Shown piece by piece: positions 1 through 56,475 of a stretch of 64,000 bases of DNA. The stretch is from an uncultured Rickettsiales bacterium. Lineage in GTDB: Bacteria; Pseudomonadota; Alphaproteobacteria; Rickettsiales; RGZB01. The translations under genes and the position numbers were made by a program. Within the stretch, counting starts at the first letter, position 1; every line of letters starts with the position of its first letter. The notes below the pieces were generated by a model. The model was not told the DNA's origin. It saw only the letters and a list, made by a program, of their open reading frames with translations, and ran no database searches. The stretch covers positions 15,139 through 79,138 of the forward strand of contig CAYXPR010000009.1 of the NCBI GenBank assembly GCA_964467255.1. The letters are read 5' to 3'.

Positions 1-239
1 AACAGTGCCCGACTCAGACAATTGTGGTGCTGATATATAGCGCGCCTCAGCCCATCCCCTATAAAGGCCAATTCGTGGAAGATATTTTGCTCAAACAAAA
101 CACGCTGACAGATAACAGCAGGGTGATTGTGAGTAGCTATTATGATGCAGCAAAAGATAAACACATGCTTGACGCGCTACAGCAGAAATTTCCCGGATAT
201 ACGGTGTGTTATTATCAGGTGGATTATTATGAGCATTAA
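1..239 (+). CDS. 3' end of an unidentified protein-coding gene (partial, runs off the left edge)
   Basis: The frame of ORF 24..239 stays open back to nt 3, so the listed GTG is probably internal. No family motif recognised. A hand count of nt 61-240 gives about 39% GC, against about 55-63% in neighbouring lines. Confidence 0.3.
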   Translation, partial: QCPTQTIVVLIYSAPQPIPYKGQFVEDILLKQNTLTDNSRVIVSSYYDAAKDKHMLDALQQKFPGYTVCYYQVDYYEH

Positions 240-253
240 AGCGGCGCGGTGAG

Positions 254-3200
254 TCAACAGCCCGGTGTGCCAGTCCCGGTATCGTTTTTGGTGCGCGCTT
301 CCATCGCTCCTTGCCAATTGCCTGCGCGCTCGGCGCTAGGTGTGGTGGCGTAGGTAAGGAAGGCGGCACGGTCATCCCCTGTATACCCCATGCGTGTGGC
401 AAACGCCTCGGCTTGTGCGAGAGTGGCGGGGTGGCCCTCGAGCCATTTTTTGACCTGAACATCGTGCATTTTTACACCACTTTTGTTTTGGATGTCTTTC
501 GCAAGACCGTTATTGCTTAAGTTTTCCTGATTCATGACGGTCTCCACGAATTTCTGGAAGGTAAAGCTTTCGTCAGTGCGTGATTTTTCAAGCAGTGCGG
601 CAGGAGAAATAATGGTTTCAGGGTTGATATATTTCCCGCGCGCCAGCGCCACAAAATCGCGTACGTCATCCGGCGCTTCGTAGCCGATGAATTTGGCGCA
701 GGCTTCTGCGATGGCATCGTTCTGTGCGAAGGTTTGGCCCCGTTCCCACTTGCCGATATTGCTGCCGGTAATGCCCTGATGCCCACCATGTACCACCCCG
801 AGATATTTACCGAACTCCGCTTGCGTGAGGCGCATCTGCGTGCGTGCGGTGTGAATCAATTTGCCGAAGTCTGCATCCTTGCGTGCATCGGTGATTAACT
901 CGTTGAGGGTTTTATCGAACGGCACGCCTAAAAACACATTGCTGATGCCGCGCGCAAAAGCGTCGTTGAAAGGGGAGAAGGCGGTACCAAGCTGGTCAAG
1001 GCTTTCGTAGCTAAGATTTTCTAGTTTTCTCCCGCCGGTGTGGACGGCGCCGATAGTATCAGTGCTTACCAGAATGGTTTCGCCTTTGCGCCCTTTCTTG
1101 CGAGTGAGTTCGCTCAGGCGTTTTTCGGTAAGGCCGCTTTGCGCGAGCAAATCATCGAAGGTTTCTTTGGCAACGGTTCCGGCGTCTTCTCCTTTTAGCA
1201 AACGCTCCTGCGCCACGCTGATGATGATGCGCGGCTCGGGAAGGTTCGGGTCGCCGCGGCCTAATTGCCAGAGCAGCAATTCCTGATGCGGTGTGAGGCG
1301 GAAGGCTTTTACCAGCATTTCCACTTCGCGCCCGCTTTTTACTTTCTCTCCTTCAAACAAATGGACGCTGCCTTCGTTAAAGCCCACCATGCGCCGGAAG
1401 GCGCGATCCGAAATATTCCACCCTTTTTCAGCGCTTGTGAAACGAGAGATGAATTCTTCAAGGCTGTGCCCGCCACCGGCGATGTAATCTTCCAGCAAGA
1501 TACCAAACGGCTTTTTTTGTGCGCGGTTGGCTTGTGTATAAGCGCCGCGCACCGCAGAATCGGGGCTTATGCCAAGGCCCTGCATAAGGCCGTCGATGGT
1601 CTTATCGTCCTGCGGATAATGGCGCGTATGGCAGTTATGCACCGTACCGATGGGGACACCACTGCGCTCAGAAATACCAGCCGCTGTAAAAGCACCACCT
1701 TTGGCTTTGTTCACCAGACCATCGACAATATCCTGCGAGGTGGTGGCCATGGTGGCACCACCGAACGCGCGCTGAACAGATAATTTTTCTGGCTCGGTGA
1801 TTTTTGCCAACTCTTTAGCAGGCAGGCCACTCAAAACATCGGTATAATGCGCGCTGATGTGGAAGAACTCGCATAAGGTGCGCATATTTTCAGCGGAGGG
1901 AATAAGCTCGCCCTTCGCGTAGGCTTCGAGTGTTTTGCCATAAATCCCCACATAAAAACCGAGTGCATCGAGATTGAGTGGGACGGTTTCAAACATGCGC
2001 TTGCAGAAAGACTGGCAAGTGAATTCGGGTGTGCCCGCTAAGTGGGGTACATCGCGCTCAATCACGAAATGTATTTTCCGCTGGATGGCCGAAAAGTCAT
2101 GCGCATGGCGCAGCTCGGCGCGCTGCAACGTGTCGAGCCCCAGAATGTCGCCGATGACGCGCGCTTTACGCGGTGTGGGGAGCGTGCGGTCGTGACGGAA
2201 ACTATCAATCATTTGTTCCGACACATTATAACCGCGCTGCTTTAACCCTTCGGACATCATTGCGTTTGTGGTGTTCGTCCAGTGCATGAGGGTGGAAAGC
2301 ACCTGACCATAGGTTTCAAGCCCGTTATTGCGGCGGGCGTTGACGTAGTCATAGCCTTTCACATTGCCATAAAAATCTTCGGCCGCTTTTTCAAATGCGG
2401 TGCGCTTTTCATAGACAGGACCTTCTTTCGGAAGCAGGCCGGCGTCGCCAAACAACCATTCCCCCAGCTTGCTGGCCAGCAATGAGGGCGAATGGGTGGC
2501 GGGCGCAGGCATAAAACCCTGCAGGACTTTGCGCTCGATACCGACATCGGTCAAAAAGGCTCTTTCCACGTCAGCCGGCGTAACGGGTGCTGTGGCGGCA
2601 AGCAGATTGAGCGACTGCGCGCGCGCCTTAAGCAACTCCTCATAGGCGAGGTAAAATGGGTGTTCGATTGTTTCAGACACGGGGCGGGTGAGCAACCGGC
2701 GGGTGTTGGCAGAAGTTACCGCAGGTGCGGGGTGTGGCGTCGGAGGGTGCGCGAGCACGCGCTCGCCAAAATGGGTCTCCAGCAGCTCCGGCTCGACGCT
2801 GATGACGCGATACGGATGCCCGAACTCATTGCGGCCTTTGGTTTCATATTCGCGGTGCTTCAGGTGCCCGAGCGTGCTGAATTCAGAAGGGCTCATCTCG
2901 CGGATTAAATCAGAACCCGCCATGGTGCGGCGGTAGGCCTCGGTGAGGTAACGTGTGAGGCGCGGGCTGGGCACGGCTGTGTCGCTCATGAGGTCGGTGA
3001 AGTCCTGCTCACTGATGCCGCCCGCGACATCAAGGTCGATGCGGTGCAGCATGTCGGCGGGGCTGACAATATCGAGCGCCAGCATCCACGCCGCCAGCGC
3101 TTCATTAAAATGCTCCGCCTGATAATCACGCAGATCGCCACCGAAATGGAAACTGAGCGTAGGGAGACTTTTTCCCGAACTATCCTCGGCATAATCCACT

Positions 3201-3256
3201 AGGTTTGAAATACGCTTTGCCACAGAACACCCCTTTTTAGTGCGCACGAGACACAC
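254..3256 (-). CDS. ~1000-aa soluble protein built from at least six degenerate XRE/Cro-type helix-turn-helix units (poly-HTH protein)
   Basis: Single uninterrupted 1000-codon ORF. Repeated HTH_XRE-like segments include 'MRLTQAEFGKYLGV..ITGSNIGKWERGQTFAQNDAIAEACAKFIG', 'GKTLEAYAKGELIPSAENMRTLCEFFHIS', 'GVKMHDVQVKKWLEGHPATLAQAEAFATRMGY', 'ISERSGVPIGTVHNCHTRHYPQDDKTIDGLMQGLGIS', 'VSEQMIDSFRHDRTLPTPRKARVIGDILGL' and 'VHLFEGEKVKSGREVEMLVKAFRL'. The N-terminal ~300 aa are unassigned. The start is uncertain: GTG 3256, or GTG 3223 preceded by AAGGGG at 6-nt spacing. Confidence 0.7.
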   Translation of the reverse strand: MCLVRTKKGCSVAKRISNLVDYAEDSSGKSLPTLSFHFGGDLRDYQAEHFNEALAAWMLALDIVSPADMLHRIDLDVAGGISEQDFTDLMSDTAVPSPRLTRYLTEAYRRTMAGSDLIREMSPSEFSTLGHLKHREYETKGRNEFGHPYRVISVEPELLETHFGERVLAHPPTPHPAPAVTSANTRRLLTRPVSETIEHPFYLAYEELLKARAQSLNLLAATAPVTPADVERAFLTDVGIERKVLQGFMPAPATHSPSLLASKLGEWLFGDAGLLPKEGPVYEKRTAFEKAAEDFYGNVKGYDYVNARRNNGLETYGQVLSTLMHWTNTTNAMMSEGLKQRGYNVSEQMIDSFRHDRTLPTPRKARVIGDILGLDTLQRAELRHAHDFSAIQRKIHFVIERDVPHLAGTPEFTCQSFCKRMFETVPLNLDALGFYVGIYGKTLEAYAKGELIPSAENMRTLCEFFHISAHYTDVLSGLPAKELAKITEPEKLSVQRAFGGATMATTSQDIVDGLVNKAKGGAFTAAGISERSGVPIGTVHNCHTRHYPQDDKTIDGLMQGLGISPDSAVRGAYTQANRAQKKPFGILLEDYIAGGGHSLEEFISRFTSAEKGWNISDRAFRRMVGFNEGSVHLFEGEKVKSGREVEMLVKAFRLTPHQELLLWQLGRGDPNLPEPRIIISVAQERLLKGEDAGTVAKETFDDLLAQSGLTEKRLSELTRKKGRKGETILVSTDTIGAVHTGGRKLENLSYESLDQLGTAFSPFNDAFARGISNVFLGVPFDKTLNELITDARKDADFGKLIHTARTQMRLTQAEFGKYLGVVHGGHQGITGSNIGKWERGQTFAQNDAIAEACAKFIGYEAPDDVRDFVALARGKYINPETIISPAALLEKSRTDESFTFQKFVETVMNQENLSNNGLAKDIQNKSGVKMHDVQVKKWLEGHPATLAQAEAFATRMGYTGDDRAAFLTYATTPSAERAGNWQGAMEARTKNDTGTGTPGC

Positions 3257-3287
3257 GTGCCCACCCTTACAGCATAGAGGACAGGTT

Positions 3288-3302
3288 TTAACAAAAGGTT
3301 AA
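3288..3302 (-). promoter_or_regulatory. TTAA-N7-TTAA motif (CtrA-box type) upstream of the poly-HTH gene
   Basis: The minus-strand reading is TTAA CCTTTTG TTAA(a). It lies about 30 nt upstream of GTG 3256, or about 63 nt upstream of GTG 3223. Confidence 0.45.
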
Positions 3303-3362
3303 ATAATATAGTGTTTTAAAAACAGTCGGTTAGTGTGTATTTCTGCGCCGCAGTTTTATGCC

Positions 3363-3378
3363 TTAACGCCTTTTTAAC
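3363..3378 (+). promoter_or_regulatory. TTAA-N7-TTAAC motif (CtrA-box type) upstream of the M20 amidase gene
   Basis: The plus-strand reading is TTAA CGCCTTT TTAAC, 32 nt before the start at 3411. Confidence 0.45.
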
Positions 3379-3410: not shown

Positions 3411-4856
3411 GTGTGCAAGGAGTTGAATTTGCCAGAAGATTTTAAACTAGCGCCGAAGCCGGATTTTGCCCTCGCGGGCAAACTCATCGGTGCGCTTAAA
3501 AAAGCCCACTGGGATAATGAGCCTGAGCGTAAAGGCATGCATGCCTATGGCTATACCAAAGCCGAGCAGGAGGCGATTGATATTGTGGTGGCTGAGGGCG
3601 TGAAGCTGGGCATGGAAGCGTTTTCGGATTTAGCAGGGAATATGTATCTGCTTTCGCGCGGCACAGGTGACGGTGCGAAAACCGACGTGATTGTGTCGCA
3701 CCTCGACACCGTGGAAAAAGGTGGCGTGCATGATGGGCGTGACGGCGTGGTGGCCGGCATAGCGGTGGTTGCCGGATTTAAGCAAAACGGCATTCCACAT
3801 GAGCATGATATCTGCGTGATGATTGCGCGCTCGGAAGAAAGCGATATTAACGGGCAGGTTTCTATCGGCGCAAAAGCGGCGACGGGCAGCCTGTCGCAGC
3901 AAGCGTTGTCGGGCCTTAATAACCGTAAAACAGGCCGCAGTTTGTGGCTTGAAATGAATGAGCTTGGCATACCGATCAGCACCCTTGCCGGAAGGCTTGA
4001 TGCCAGCCCGACATTATTCCCCACGGGGGATGCGGCCAAAGCCCTGATTGGCTTTTTGGTGGAAGCGCATATTGAACAAGGCAGTTATTGCGCCAAGCAG
4101 GATATTAATATCGGCATCGTGAATGCCATTCGTGGGAACACGCGCTTTCTGGATGCAAAGATTACCGGCGAGGCCGCGCACTCGGGCGCGACGTTTGAAG
4201 AAGACCGCGCTGACGCCAACCGCGCTTATGTGAAGCTGATGCATGCAGCAGAAGAATGGTTTGATGTGCAGCGCAGACATGGCCGCGATGTGGTGTTTAC
4301 GCCCGGTAAAGTAAAATCGAATAATGAGTCGGCGACGACCGTGTCAGACAATATAACCTTCTCATTTGAGATACGCTCGGCCGATGAAAAAGTCTTACAA
4401 GACTTTGCCACGTTCATGAAAACGAAGGCCGAAGAAATCGTGTCGAGTCACCCGAATAATAAACTGAAAATTGAATTGCCGAAGGCCAACATTGCCAAGC
4501 CAGCAGAGATGGACAAAGAAGTGATTGCCCATGCGCAGGCGATTGCGAATGAACTTGGCGTTCGCTCCGGCATCGTGACGAGCGGTGCGGGGCACGACAC
4601 GGTGCAGTTTGCCAACACCGGCACGCCGAGCGTGATGCTGTTCATCAAACAGGATGACCCGATTAGCCACAACCCACGTGAGGCGCGCCGCGAGGATAGT
4701 TTTAAGAACGCCTGCAAAATCATTGCGGGGATGATTATGAACCCGCAGGAAAGAACGCAAGAACCCACGCTGCCGCCGGAGGGCCCGAAAAGCTTCCGCG
4801 AATATATTGCGCAGCAGGGTGCCGTGCCCTATGAACCCGGCCAGTGGAAACGCTAA
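3411..4856 (+). CDS. Zn-dependent M20 amidase of the amidase/hydantoinase/carbamoylase family (allantoate amidohydrolase / N-carbamoyl-amino-acid hydrolase type)
   Basis: 'VSHLDTVEKGGVHDGRDGVVAGIAVV' matches the HLD(S/T)V..GG..DG..GV metal-binding block of this family. 'EAHIEQG' and 'SGAGHD' blocks are also present. There is a ~40-aa Pro/Glu-rich C-terminal extension. Confidence 0.8.
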   Translation: MCKELNLPEDFKLAPKPDFALAGKLIGALKKAHWDNEPERKGMHAYGYTKAEQEAIDIVVAEGVKLGMEAFSDLAGNMYLLSRGTGDGAKTDVIVSHLDTVEKGGVHDGRDGVVAGIAVVAGFKQNGIPHEHDICVMIARSEESDINGQVSIGAKAATGSLSQQALSGLNNRKTGRSLWLEMNELGIPISTLAGRLDASPTLFPTGDAAKALIGFLVEAHIEQGSYCAKQDINIGIVNAIRGNTRFLDAKITGEAAHSGATFEEDRADANRAYVKLMHAAEEWFDVQRRHGRDVVFTPGKVKSNNESATTVSDNITFSFEIRSADEKVLQDFATFMKTKAEEIVSSHPNNKLKIELPKANIAKPAEMDKEVIAHAQAIANELGVRSGIVTSGAGHDTVQFANTGTPSVMLFIKQDDPISHNPREARREDSFKNACKIIAGMIMNPQERTQEPTLPPEGPKSFREYIAQQGAVPYEPGQWKR

Positions 4857-8039: not shown

Positions 8040-9247
8040 TCAGCCTCGGCGGGTGCTGCGGCTTCAGGTGCGGCTTCTGCTGCCGGTGCAGCGGCAGGCG
8101 TTGCAGCAGGTGCATCCATTGGCACCATTTCCGGTATGACCGGTGTGCCCGGGCGTGCGCGCTGCAAACCATTCACCACAATTTTATCACCGGCTTTCAG
8201 CCCTTCGGTGACGATGCGCAAACCATCTGCCATGCCGCCAAGCTTTACTTCACGGTAGGCCACGATGTTGTCATCTCCCACGGCGAGGACGAATTTTTTA
8301 TTCTGGTCAGTGCCCACGGCACGGTCAGTAATCAATATGGCATCGACGTCATTCGCGCTGCCCACTGTGATGCGCGCAAACAGACCCGGCACAAGCGTAC
8401 CATCGGTATTTTCAAACATCGCGCGGGCGCGGATGGTGCCTGTGGCGCTGTCGAGGTGATTGTCGAAGGATTCAATCACGCCCGTGTGCACAGCAGCGCT
8501 TCCACTGCCGAGCTCTAAACGTACCGGAATCGCATCGTCATCCACCACCGCTCTGCGGGTGTAGGTGAGGAAAGTGGTTTCATCCATTTCAAAATCCGCA
8601 TAGATAGGCGAATTCGCCACCACGGTGGTGAGCAGCGGCGCGCCCGTGTTGATTTCAACAAGGTTGCCTGCGGTGATTTCCGCACGGCTGACCATGCCGG
8701 AAATGGGCGCGGTGACTTTGGTGTAAGCGAGATTCAGTTTTGCCACCTGCATGGCGGCCTTCGCACTTTGCAGCGACGCTTTTGCGACGCGCAGCGCATT
8801 CTGGCGGCGCTCATATTCGCGCTGCGGAATCACTTTATTTTGAATCAGTCCTTCGGCGCGTTCCATTTCTTTGGCAGCGAGTGTGTGTTCGGCCTCAGCA
8901 GAAGCCAGCGCACCCGCCGCGCGGTTTACTTCGGCCGTGAACGGGCGCGAGTCAATGGTGAAGAGCAAGTCACCTTTTTTCACCTGCGCACCATTGGTGA
9001 AATGCACGGCCTCGATGATGCCCGAAACTTGCGGGCGTACCTCGGCGCGGTCGACCGCGACCAACCTGCCGGAAAAACTTTTCCACGACTGCACGCGGCG
9101 CGAAATCACCTGCGCCACACTCACCGGCGCGGCACCCATTTGATCCATGCCCTGCGGGGCGGAGCCGAACCAACCCGGCACATAATTAATGGCCGCCAGA
9201 ATGAGCAGCACAAAACCAGCCAGAGTGAGCAACGTGGAGCGCCGCAT
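8036..9247 (-). CDS. RND efflux periplasmic adaptor (membrane fusion protein, AcrA/HlyD family)
   Basis: N-terminal TM anchor, a coiled-coil hairpin region (LRVAKASLQSAKAAMQVAKLNLAYTKVTAPISG) and a beta-barrel region. Translationally coupled to the RND permease. Ala/Pro/Glu-rich C-terminal tail. Confidence 0.9.
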
Positions 9248-9477
9248 AAGAAAAGACCCTTCAGGTGATGGAAAATGAATGCGGACGCAGCATGAAACAA
9301 ATTCGCCGTGTAGTCAATAATGCCAGAATGAAATTGTAAAATTATCTTCCTACAGATAATGCGCATAAATATGGTGTATTAGTATGAGACAAACTACAAT
9401 TAATTGATTTGCACTTTACAAACGAAACTCTGTGCCACATGTTTGCGGTAGGGAGTTTTGTCCTGAAGAGAGCTGGT

Positions 9478-10968
9478 ATGGCCAAAAAAATTCGCAAAAC
9501 GCCTGCTGTCCGGCGCAAGGTTCGTTCCGTACACAATACGGGGTCGGTAGCGATCTACGCGATGGTCATGCTGCTTGCCTTCACCGTGCTGTATTTTGGC
9601 ACCCAGCCCTTAATGAATGACCCAGATACGCCGTGGCACGTGGCGGCAGGTGAATATATCCGAGAAATAGGTAGCGTGCCGATGGCGGACCCATGGTCGT
9701 ATGCCACCACACAGGCGCGCTGGTATAATCTTTCATGGGCATGGGACGTGCTTATCAGCGTGGTGGCGGATGGAGCAGGGCTTGGTGGCCTTTTCATTTT
9801 TAGCTGCCTGTGTGGCGCGGGGGTGATTACATTTTTAGCCTTTGTTTTGCGTGCGCGCATCGGCCAGTTTAATGACGCCATTTTTATGGTGCTGGCTATT
9901 GTGGGCGTGACATACATGGCGCAGTATGGCGCCCGCCCGCAACTGGTAACCGAAGCGATGGCGGTGTTGTGGTTGTGGGGTACGCCGCAATTATTGAAGC
10001 AAAAAAAATGGCAGTATGTTCTTCCGCTCAGCATGGTGGTGTGGGTTAATTTCCACGGCGGCTTTTTGGCGGCTTATGCCATTTTAGGCGCCTATGTTTT
10101 TCAGGCATGGCAGAACAAACAAGGCCAGTATGTAAGGCAGGCCGTGATAACCGGCGCCATCAGTACGCTGGCGCTGTGTGCAAACCCGCTGGGCGTGCAT
10201 GTGTTTCAGGGAACGCTGCGCACACTGATTAGCGACATCACGCCGTATCTTTCCGAATGGGGTCCCATGGTGTTCACGGCATCTACGGGTTTTGATATGG
10301 CGCTGATTGCAATGATTGTGGCGTCGGGCTTTAGAGATAAAACCATTCCCGTAGCGGAAAAGATTTTAGCATTCACATGGATGCTGGCGGCGCTGTTTAC
10401 GGTGCGTCATCTTTTTCTAGCGGTGGTGATGGCGGCGCCATATCTGGTGCGTGCGCTGTCAAAAACACTGCCGCATATTCGTGAGTATCACGTGCCGCGC
10501 CGTTCATATCATGGTGTGGCATGCGTGGCGCTCGTTCTTGGGGTGGTGGTGCTGACCGCCATGCCAGTGCGGGAGGCCATCACCCATAAGTCACGCATTC
10601 TTTCAGAAGACCAAATACCGGTCGGCGCGCTTAATTTTATTCGGGAACATTACCCACGCACGCGCTTTCTGAACGAATTTTTTATTGGCGGCCACATGAT
10701 TTACTATAATCGTGATGTGCATCAAGTTTTCACCGATGGCCGTGCAGGTACAGCTTACAGCGAAAAAGACCTTGCTGATATTATTTTGCTGATGAAGGGT
10801 GAGAAGGTGGATGATATTCTCCGCAAACACGATATTGCCGGAGTTATTTTGCCAAGCTGGCGCAATGCCTATAAGATTCCGCAGCTACACAACCCGCGAT
10901 ACTGGCAGAAAGTGTATGATGATGGTGTGGGCGAGGTGTACATACGCGTTGTGCCACACAGAGAGTAA
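9478..10968 (+). CDS. polytopic inner-membrane protein of unknown function (possibly a GT-C-like glycosyltransferase)
   Basis: ORF 9409..10968 trimmed to ATG 9478 (MAKKIRKT..). At least 10 hydrophobic helices followed by a ~120-aa soluble C-terminus. No catalytic motif recognised, so the function is a guess. Confidence 0.6.
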   Translation: MAKKIRKTPAVRRKVRSVHNTGSVAIYAMVMLLAFTVLYFGTQPLMNDPDTPWHVAAGEYIREIGSVPMADPWSYATTQARWYNLSWAWDVLISVVADGAGLGGLFIFSCLCGAGVITFLAFVLRARIGQFNDAIFMVLAIVGVTYMAQYGARPQLVTEAMAVLWLWGTPQLLKQKKWQYVLPLSMVVWVNFHGGFLAAYAILGAYVFQAWQNKQGQYVRQAVITGAISTLALCANPLGVHVFQGTLRTLISDITPYLSEWGPMVFTASTGFDMALIAMIVASGFRDKTIPVAEKILAFTWMLAALFTVRHLFLAVVMAAPYLVRALSKTLPHIREYHVPRRSYHGVACVALVLGVVVLTAMPVREAITHKSRILSEDQIPVGALNFIREHYPRTRFLNEFFIGGHMIYYNRDVHQVFTDGRAGTAYSEKDLADIILLMKGEKVDDILRKHDIAGVILPSWRNAYKIPQLHNPRYWQKVYDDGVGEVYIRVVPHRE

Positions 10969-41421: not shown

Positions 41422-41437
41422 GTTAAAAAAACGTTAA
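41422..41437 (-). promoter_or_regulatory. TTAA-N7-TTAAC motif (CtrA-box type) upstream of the 257-aa orphan
   Basis: The minus-strand reading is TTAA CGTTTTT TTAAC. It sits in the 71-nt gap between the acyl-CoA ligase stop (41455) and ATG 41383. Confidence 0.45.
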
Positions 41438-45070: not shown

Positions 45071-45086
45071 TTAAGCCTTCTTTAAC
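45071..45086 (+). promoter_or_regulatory. TTAA-N7-TTAAC motif (CtrA-box type) upstream of the acidic orphan
   Basis: The plus-strand reading is TTAA GCCTTCT TTAAC. It begins 5 nt after the folD stop and ends 48 nt before ATG 45135. Confidence 0.45.
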
Positions 45087-56459: not shown

Positions 56460-56475
56460 GTTAACAAAGCCTTAA
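56460..56475 (-). promoter_or_regulatory. TTAA-N7-TTAAC motif (CtrA-box type) upstream of the 338-aa orphan
   Basis: The minus-strand reading is TTAA GGCTTTG TTAAC. It lies in the 67-nt gap between the ilvE stop (56492) and ATG 56424. Confidence 0.45.

Follow-up and report, generated by a model that had tools for sequence, protein, structure and literature searches.

XRE/Cro-C1 is the commonest DNA-binding domain of bacteria, understood almost entirely from one-domain chains that dimerize on palindromes. Regulators with two helix–turn–helix (HTH) domains of this type are described from Wolbachia prophage WO (bioRxiv 10.1101/2021.11.04.467296). TnsD-type target selectors of Tn7-like transposons have C-terminal regions that fold into multiple HTH domains (PMC10293859), and the paper describing a methylase–helicase dyad in polyvalent proteins, which occur on phages and conjugative elements, has no account of poly-XRE arrays (PMC5512222). 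Here we analyse a gene from an uncultured Rickettsiales bacterium, contained in a 64,000-nucleotide stretch of contig CAYXPR010000009.1 (assembly GCA_964467255.1; hereafter the window, numbered from its first letter). The gene is a minus-strand open reading frame (ORF), 254–3256, of 1,000 residues. Profile comparisons show that seven consecutive modules of its product (residues 311–975) share homology with each other and with XRE/Cro-C1 HTH domains.

Nine candidate units (a–i), all on the minus strand, were delimited from helix patterns and motifs. Units c (residues 311–388; window 2093–2326), d (410–480; 1817–2029), f (581–668; 1253–1516), h (795–877; 626–874) and i (897–975; 332–568) are assigned as XRE-type HTHs, f being further marked by an N-terminal extension (PFGxxLEDYxxGGG) and a C-terminal motif (LWQLGRGD). 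Unit e (503–575; 1532–1750) is a strongly diverged XRE-like HTH; unit g (694–778; 923–1177) is also diverged, its helices 2 and 3 being separated by an insertion. The two foremost units, a (31–122; 2891–3166) and b (199–279; 2420–2662), are helical modules that may be degenerate XRE-like HTHs. Three peptides quoted as HTH examples in a previous sequence-only reading of this DNA map to residues 829–858 (unit h), 443–468 (unit d) and 933–958 (unit i).

Standard annotation shows one weak HTH in these 1,000 residues. Using the XRE/Cro-C1 models of Pfam (HTH_3, PF01381; HTH_31, PF13560; HTH_19, PF12844; HTH_26, PF13443), the full-length query matches HTH_31 at residues 797–854 (unit h) with 27.6 bits against a gathering threshold of 27; HTH_3 on the same unit lies just under threshold (21.9 bits), and excising unit h as an isolated segment lowers its HTH_31 score to 21.3 bits. 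Beyond this there is a weak HTH_19 match at residues 436–470 (unit d, E 0.035 as a segment), a weak Pou match on unit h (E 0.06) and a set of NCBIfam XRE-type matches, all sub-threshold. Run segment by segment, Pfam gives an XRE match in two of the nine query units (h and, weakly, d) and no match in the other seven. Self-BLAST of the query reveals no internal repeat similarity, and profile searches of the PDB are uninformative for units a, b, e and g.

Such results are what would be expected if the protein held one genuine XRE domain, unit h, with the remainder being unrelated helical filler that resembles HTHs by chance or composition. A naive segment-wise Pfam test would have rejected the array, as it sees one XRE domain at threshold. 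The sequence-only reading had proposed at least six XRE units and named a lack of profile hits in most segments as grounds for dropping the idea; taken literally, hits in one or two of nine segments are just that. The profile–profile tests below overturn this outcome, the architecture emerging only once orthologue profiles, which come from a handful of metagenomic relatives, take the place of the single sequence.

We ran hhalign between per-unit alignments composed of orthologues only. Any two of units c, d, f, h and i match in register at a probability of at least 94.5%, with unit f at 96–97% to c, d, h and i, and the h–i pair at 99%. Unit c reaches at least 95% against d, f, g, h and i. Unit g is tied to c (95%) and h (93%). 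Unit e matches f (93%) and d (88–90%), its ties to other units running only via these two. The nulls, for which templates were reversed or column-shuffled, reach a maximum of 2.8% in 144 comparisons. Links among c–i thus stand far above background, in register, mostly at 85–99%.

A second route used jackhmmer, with single units as queries and, as the database, the family together with 341 decoys made by shuffling or reversal. Starting from f, the search recovers c, d, e, h and i (e at 7e-8); from c it recovers d, h and i; h and i each recover the other as well as c, and none of the 341 decoys falls below 1e-3. As an independent reference we took the Pfam-validated tandem HTH_3 repeats of two uncharacterized proteins, P0027 and P0030. 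Against these repeats, hhalign returns 95.5% for c, 98.1% for d, 96.1% for f, 86.7% for g, 92.4% for h and 94.8% for i, so that six of the seven units of c–i match; unit e does not (46%), and a and b score 1% and 5%.

Replacing each query unit with the consensus of its orthologues recovers much of the missing Pfam signal. Units d, f, h and i then exceed gathering thresholds for HTH_3 or HTH_31: d with both HTH_31 (31.9 bits) and HTH_3 (31.1 bits), f with HTH_3 (33.4 bits) and Xre-like-HTH (30.4 bits, also over threshold), h with HTH_31 (39.4 bits) and i with HTH_3 (56.3 bits). Unit c gives HTH_31 at 21.9 bits (E 2e-4). Pooling the units yields a textbook XRE sequence (HTH_31 80 bits, HTH_3 72 bits). 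Among individual homologues, the best Pfam stretches sit on the equivalents of unit c (P0004), d (P0008), e (P0005) and f (P0008), and the best HTH_3 stretch corresponds to unit c in P0004 and to unit d in P0008. For units e and g, HTH_26 is matched by one of 15 orthologues in each case. A hidden Markov model (HMM) of the pooled units, applied leave-one-out, detects the single sequences of c, e (marginally), h and i.

Several of these results count against the array and have to be weighed with it. Just one unit of the query (h) reaches a Pfam threshold; e and g lack a Pfam match even as orthologue consensus sequences; the pooled HMM, run leave-one-out, misses d, f and g as single sequences, for which reason the case for these three units is carried by profile–profile comparison and jackhmmer. 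A full-length AlphaFold2 (AF2) model from three sequences is poor (predicted local distance difference test (pLDDT) 45.7) and unusable for a fold search, leaving units c–i without fold-level confirmation. We nonetheless regard the single-domain alternative as largely refuted and very improbable for units c–i: it would have to account for in-register links so far above their nulls, for a clean set of jackhmmer decoys, for the fit of the units to validated HTH_3 repeats from elsewhere, and for the Pfam thresholds exceeded by d, f and i as consensus sequences. By these comparisons, support is strong for five units (c, d, f, h and i); for e and g it comes through profile–profile comparison only. 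The proposal of six or more units is thus borne out, with seven, provided that family profiles are used.

The N-terminal 300 or so residues had been left unassigned by the sequence-only reading, and Pfam is likewise silent there, both on query units a and b and on their orthologue consensus sequences. Similarity to the HTH units is weak, in register and above all nulls (27–68%, E 5e-5 to 7e-4, nulls at most 2.8%). Unit a aligns to c at 40%, to d at 28–32% and to pooled c–i at 68% (E 5e-5), and unit b to h at 27–41% and to pooled c–i at 54% (E 1.3e-4). An AF2 model of residues 12–312, built with nine sequences, has an overall pLDDT of 75.5 and displays two five-helix modules (pLDDT 80–92 for unit a, 83–95 for unit b). 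Foldseek searches of this model against the PDB and BFVD return nothing at E < 0.2. The best small-protein matches, not significant at E ≥ 0.2, are XRE folds with template-modelling scores of 0.45–0.69 per target: the HigA and GraA antitoxins, the ComR DNA-binding domain, NGO0477, the cyanase N-terminal domain, phage repressors and cro/C1 proteins. It is possible that units a and b are degenerate copies of the XRE fold. More widely, AF2 predicts an all-helical secondary structure with a repeating five-helix pattern, ending in a poorly conserved C-terminal tail (residues 976–1000; 257–331, minus strand) with pLDDT < 50.

A loop of unit a (DLDVAGGISEQDF; residues 73–85, window 3002–3040) resembles the Ca-binding loop of an EF-hand, and a PDB profile search with this unit retrieves calmodulin at E 0.007–0.1. 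We rejected an EF-hand assignment because the Ca-ligand positions are not conserved in homologues (those at positions 1 and 5 are not preserved in P0004 and P0006); Pfam finds no EF-hand match. The same PDB searches give designed helical repeats and a weak ‘immunity repressor’ match for unit g, no match for unit e and nothing useful for unit b.

A motif specific to the family, (L/F)xxLARG(D / xY), ends helix 5 of units f (residues 664–670, about 1247–1267) and h (residues 870–875, 632–649). G668 and G708 (SGLT, unit g) are the sole nearly invariant residues across 26 family members.

The longest reading of the ORF opens at GTG 3256 and ends with a stop codon at 254–256. The true start is probably GTG 3223 (residue 12), giving a coding sequence of 254–3223 on the minus strand and a product of ~989 residues; we favour it because an AAGGGG ribosome-binding site lies just 5′ of this codon, because the first residue of the 54%-identical relative P0003 is its equivalent, and because the 11 upstream codons are conserved far below the rest of the gene in comparisons with relatives. 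The ORF exists as the sequence-only reading had called it: two Logan assemblies, made independently from separate runs (SRR12816580 and SRR12816581; L001 and L002), contain it intact with identical DNA, and it is also unbroken in P0003. Against an 84%-identical relative (L003), dN/dS is 0.106 over residues 1–725 and 0.089 over residues 733–1000, with dS of 0.57–0.87. The gene is real and, judged by these ratios, under strong purifying selection.

In the sister lineage that this relative represents (Lake Mendota), a 1-nt deletion splits the gene into parts of 730 and 271 residues. The deletion is found in L003 (12180–12200), L004, L005 and the gene calls of GCA_041443025.1; it corresponds to window positions of about 1055–1075 and falls in the helix 2–helix 3 insertion of unit g. 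A broken orthologue in so close a relative raises the prospect that the window gene is decaying, or is an artefact of assembly. For the window copy we consider this refuted. That copy is undisturbed in both assemblies and in P0003, the ratios on the two sides of the split (0.11 and 0.09) show that both halves of the sister gene have kept purifying selection, and the break creates overlapping stop and start codons (GTGA), by which translation of the two halves could be coupled. A check for splitting or frameshifts, suggested with the original proposal, therefore comes out clean for the window and finds a break in the sister lineage only, where the split is either recent or tolerated.

The family is uncharacterized and very rare. 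A word-indexed search of 5.8 billion proteins found three members: P0001 (identical), P0002 (the 84% relative, called as 730 residues) and P0003 (54%, 988 residues). Using HMMER with an alignment of these three against 1.84 billion representative proteins gave 30 at E ≤ 1e-3, ranging from 165 to 5,395 residues, which puts the family at about 30 clusters in that set. Ten clusters that were looked up contain one to three sequences each, all from metagenome assemblies and with no informative name. A repeat homologue search with a 26-sequence alignment retrieved the same three proteins only, a metagenome contig scan added no further relatives, and tblastn against annotated plasmids and phages gave no match.

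Once the profile had been rebuilt twice, collinear alignment to the query extended over residues ~390–960 (an ordered block of units d–i) in many members, and several hold extra copies of the C-terminal units. Identity across the family is 17–30%. Because the ordered block is conserved at such divergence, the array is ancient and position-specific rather than a recent tandem duplication, each position having its own identity; the lack of BLAST-level similarity between units agrees with this, and with the earlier description of an old array. When 13 more members were scanned with Pfam (P0003–P0006, P0008, P0010–P0012, P0015, P0018, P0021, P0022 and P0025), every match above gathering threshold was to an XRE-type HTH family.

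Other members combine the block with further domains. P0009 (L009, 39–4463) has an SF2 helicase core (ResIII/DEAD/Helicase_C) within the array, replacing units d–e; it probably sits on a conjugative element, because relaxase, TraI_middle and LPD7 genes adjoin it (8145–10829). In P0024 (3,273 residues; L010, 177–9998), units f–h are joined to two S-adenosylmethionine (SAM) methyltransferases and a DUF7790 domain. Two blocks are embedded in P0028 (5,395 residues; L008, 2–16189) among methyltransferase, acetyltransferase, receiver and HATPase domains. P0007 has a weak sigma-70 region 4 match. The P0006 locus (L006, 2276–4327 and 4360–9957) includes a second ORF of ~660–684 residues with three family-type units, two large ankyrin-repeat genes and, downstream, a 1,013-residue FlgE-like gene.

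What such a chain might do can be approached from its parts. The product would be a cytoplasmic protein of ~989 residues made almost wholly of five-helix modules of ~100 residues each, and we give about even chances to a role as a single-chain multi-HTH nucleic-acid binder. On this view, a long or composite DNA target would be contacted part by part as one non-equivalent HTH unit follows another along the chain, the in-chain array replacing the dimerization required by ordinary one-domain XRE repressors. The canonical pattern of the recognition helix (GVSxSTIxxWExG...P) is still present in the unit consensus sequences, and the helicase and methyltransferase fusions of relatives, together with the relaxase neighbour of P0009, favour a nucleic-acid-binding role.

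The same protein offers reasons for caution about DNA binding. Its units are near neutral or acidic (net charge −8 for unit a; whole-protein isoelectric point 6.3), and the helix 2–helix 3 turn is interrupted by insertions in units a, g and h. We found no DNA tandem or direct repeats suited to arrays of binding sites, no candidate target, and no conserved neighbourhood or operon partner across the family loci examined (window, sister, P0003, P0005, P0006, P0009, P0024 and P0028). Most of these features fit the main rival, in which the HTH fold has been repurposed and the array serves as a scaffold or adaptor for protein–protein interactions. RodZ sets a precedent, having an XRE-type HTH that binds MreB. 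Charge, turn insertions and the missing repeat target would all be accommodated by a scaffold, as would the loss of a Pfam-detectable signature from most units and the retention of each unit as a distinct orthologous position, as expected of specific partner surfaces. It is harder to square with the retained recognition-helix pattern and with fusion partners and neighbours that act on DNA, and the absence of a conserved neighbourhood means that no partner is indicated for it either. We hold the scaffold to be a rather doubtful, though serious, competitor to nucleic-acid binding.

The upstream region bears on when the putative DNA binder would be made. Two TTAA-N7-TTAA motifs (recorded without strand) lie at 3288–3302, 65–79 nt upstream of the probable start, and at 3363–3377, within the intergenic region shared with the divergent M20 peptidase gene. 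Finding at least two such boxes in this 187-bp region has P = 0.0008. Both are conserved in the sister lineage (L003, L005) and are the sole TTAA-N7-TTAA matches in the 16–22 kb loci L001, L003 and L005. We take these upstream motifs to fit the CtrA box of alphaproteobacteria, in line with the CtrA-box-type motif that had been noticed upstream of the gene. The 64-kb window contains five of them against 0.64 expected from shuffles, all between long ORFs (the others at 41423–41437, 45071–45085 and 56461–56475), which suggests a recognizable CtrA regulon in this genome. Transcription of the array gene would then probably be under CtrA via its two conserved boxes; their position in a shared divergent region tempers this, as they could serve the M20 peptidase gene instead.

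Taken furthest, nucleic-acid binding would have the seven to nine non-equivalent XRE modules of one monomer recognize or coat some 70–100 bp as a CtrA-timed chromosome or nucleoid organizer, and act in relatives as the DNA-targeting arm of helicase and methyltransferase polyvalent proteins on mobile elements. We consider this elaborated version unlikely.

An imperfect inverted repeat whose 12-nt arms are separated by 24 nt (GACAGGTTTTAA / TTAAAAACAGTC, 3280–3291 and 3316–3327) overlaps the TTAA box that is promoter-proximal. It is largely conserved in the relative and is a possible operator.

The locus itself is an ordinary one. Window and sister share the divergent M20 peptidase gene (longest ORF 3411–4856, plus strand; called in L001 as 475 residues with a start at about 3429), a resistance–nodulation–division (RND) pump and a convergent PMT_2-type glycosyltransferase gene; P0003, P0005 and P0006 sit in other contexts. 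The neighbour that the sequence-only reading took for a low-GC gene fragment is not a fragment: the ORF at 24–239 (plus strand, 71 residues) is the 3′ end of the complete, 500-residue PMT_2-type gene, cut by the window edge, with a GC content of 48% as against 54% for the window. In L001, a 454-residue class-I SAM methyltransferase gene comes after it. A PMT_2 gene is also found near P0028, and methyltransferases are fused in P0024 and P0028, which may be coincidence. Searches of the window for RNA genes came back empty.

These surroundings bear on a further alternative, that the array is a secreted effector of the nucleomodulin type, with which an intracellular, Rickettsiales-like bacterium acts on host DNA or chromatin. 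The closest genome is labelled as a metagenome-assembled genome of a Rickettsiales bacterium, the distant homologue P0006 adjoins large ankyrin-repeat genes, and giant multi-domain proteins are frequent in the family. On the query, however, Pfam and NCBIfam show neither a secretion signal nor a eukaryote-like domain, and the chromosomal setting is a housekeeping one (RND pump, M20 peptidase, MsrB). An effector role strikes us as improbable.

Comparison with known systems places the protein on familiar ground with an unfamiliar arrangement. Its units belong to the same superfamily as the one- and two-domain XRE regulators (phage repressors, HigA-type antitoxins and those of prophage WO). It differs from them in having seven to nine units per chain with no separate oligomerization or sensor domain detected, in units that mostly escape single-sequence Pfam, and in a unit order conserved across its family. 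Eukaryotic POU and CUT-repeat factors (CUX/SATB) also place several lambda-repressor-like DNA-binding domains in one chain, cooperating on composite sites. They have two to four domains and are combined with homeodomains; with a weak Pou match on unit h as the sole point of contact in sequence, the likeness would be one of working logic. TnsD-type selectors are a working analogy only, of several single-chain HTHs reading a long asymmetric site; the query has no TniQ or zinc-finger match in Pfam or NCBIfam, and no transposition genes lie at its locus.

Closer are the polyvalent proteins, since the relatives P0009, P0024 and P0028 look like members of that class and carry the same poly-HTH block; the query differs in having no enzymatic domain (Pfam, NCBIfam), a syntenic chromosomal locus and no plasmid or phage match. 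The tandem proteins P0027 (533 residues) and P0030 (433 residues) have head-to-tail units with starts ~80–105 residues apart, which match query unit d. They are homogeneous five-fold HTH_3 tandems, whose repeats are alike and individually pass Pfam (HTH_3 87–103 bits), which points to a younger array, and they lack the position-specific units and N-terminal region of the query. In searching the literature we came across no account of seven to nine diverged XRE units forming an ordered, ancient array. The XRE domain, its one- and two-domain proteins and homogeneous tandems of it are known; unusual, and rare, is a family that fixes at least seven diverged copies in conserved order per polypeptide and reuses the block beside helicase and methyltransferase modules. 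This would be a different use of the XRE fold, either reading long asymmetric DNA targets or making a scaffold out of a DNA-binding fold.

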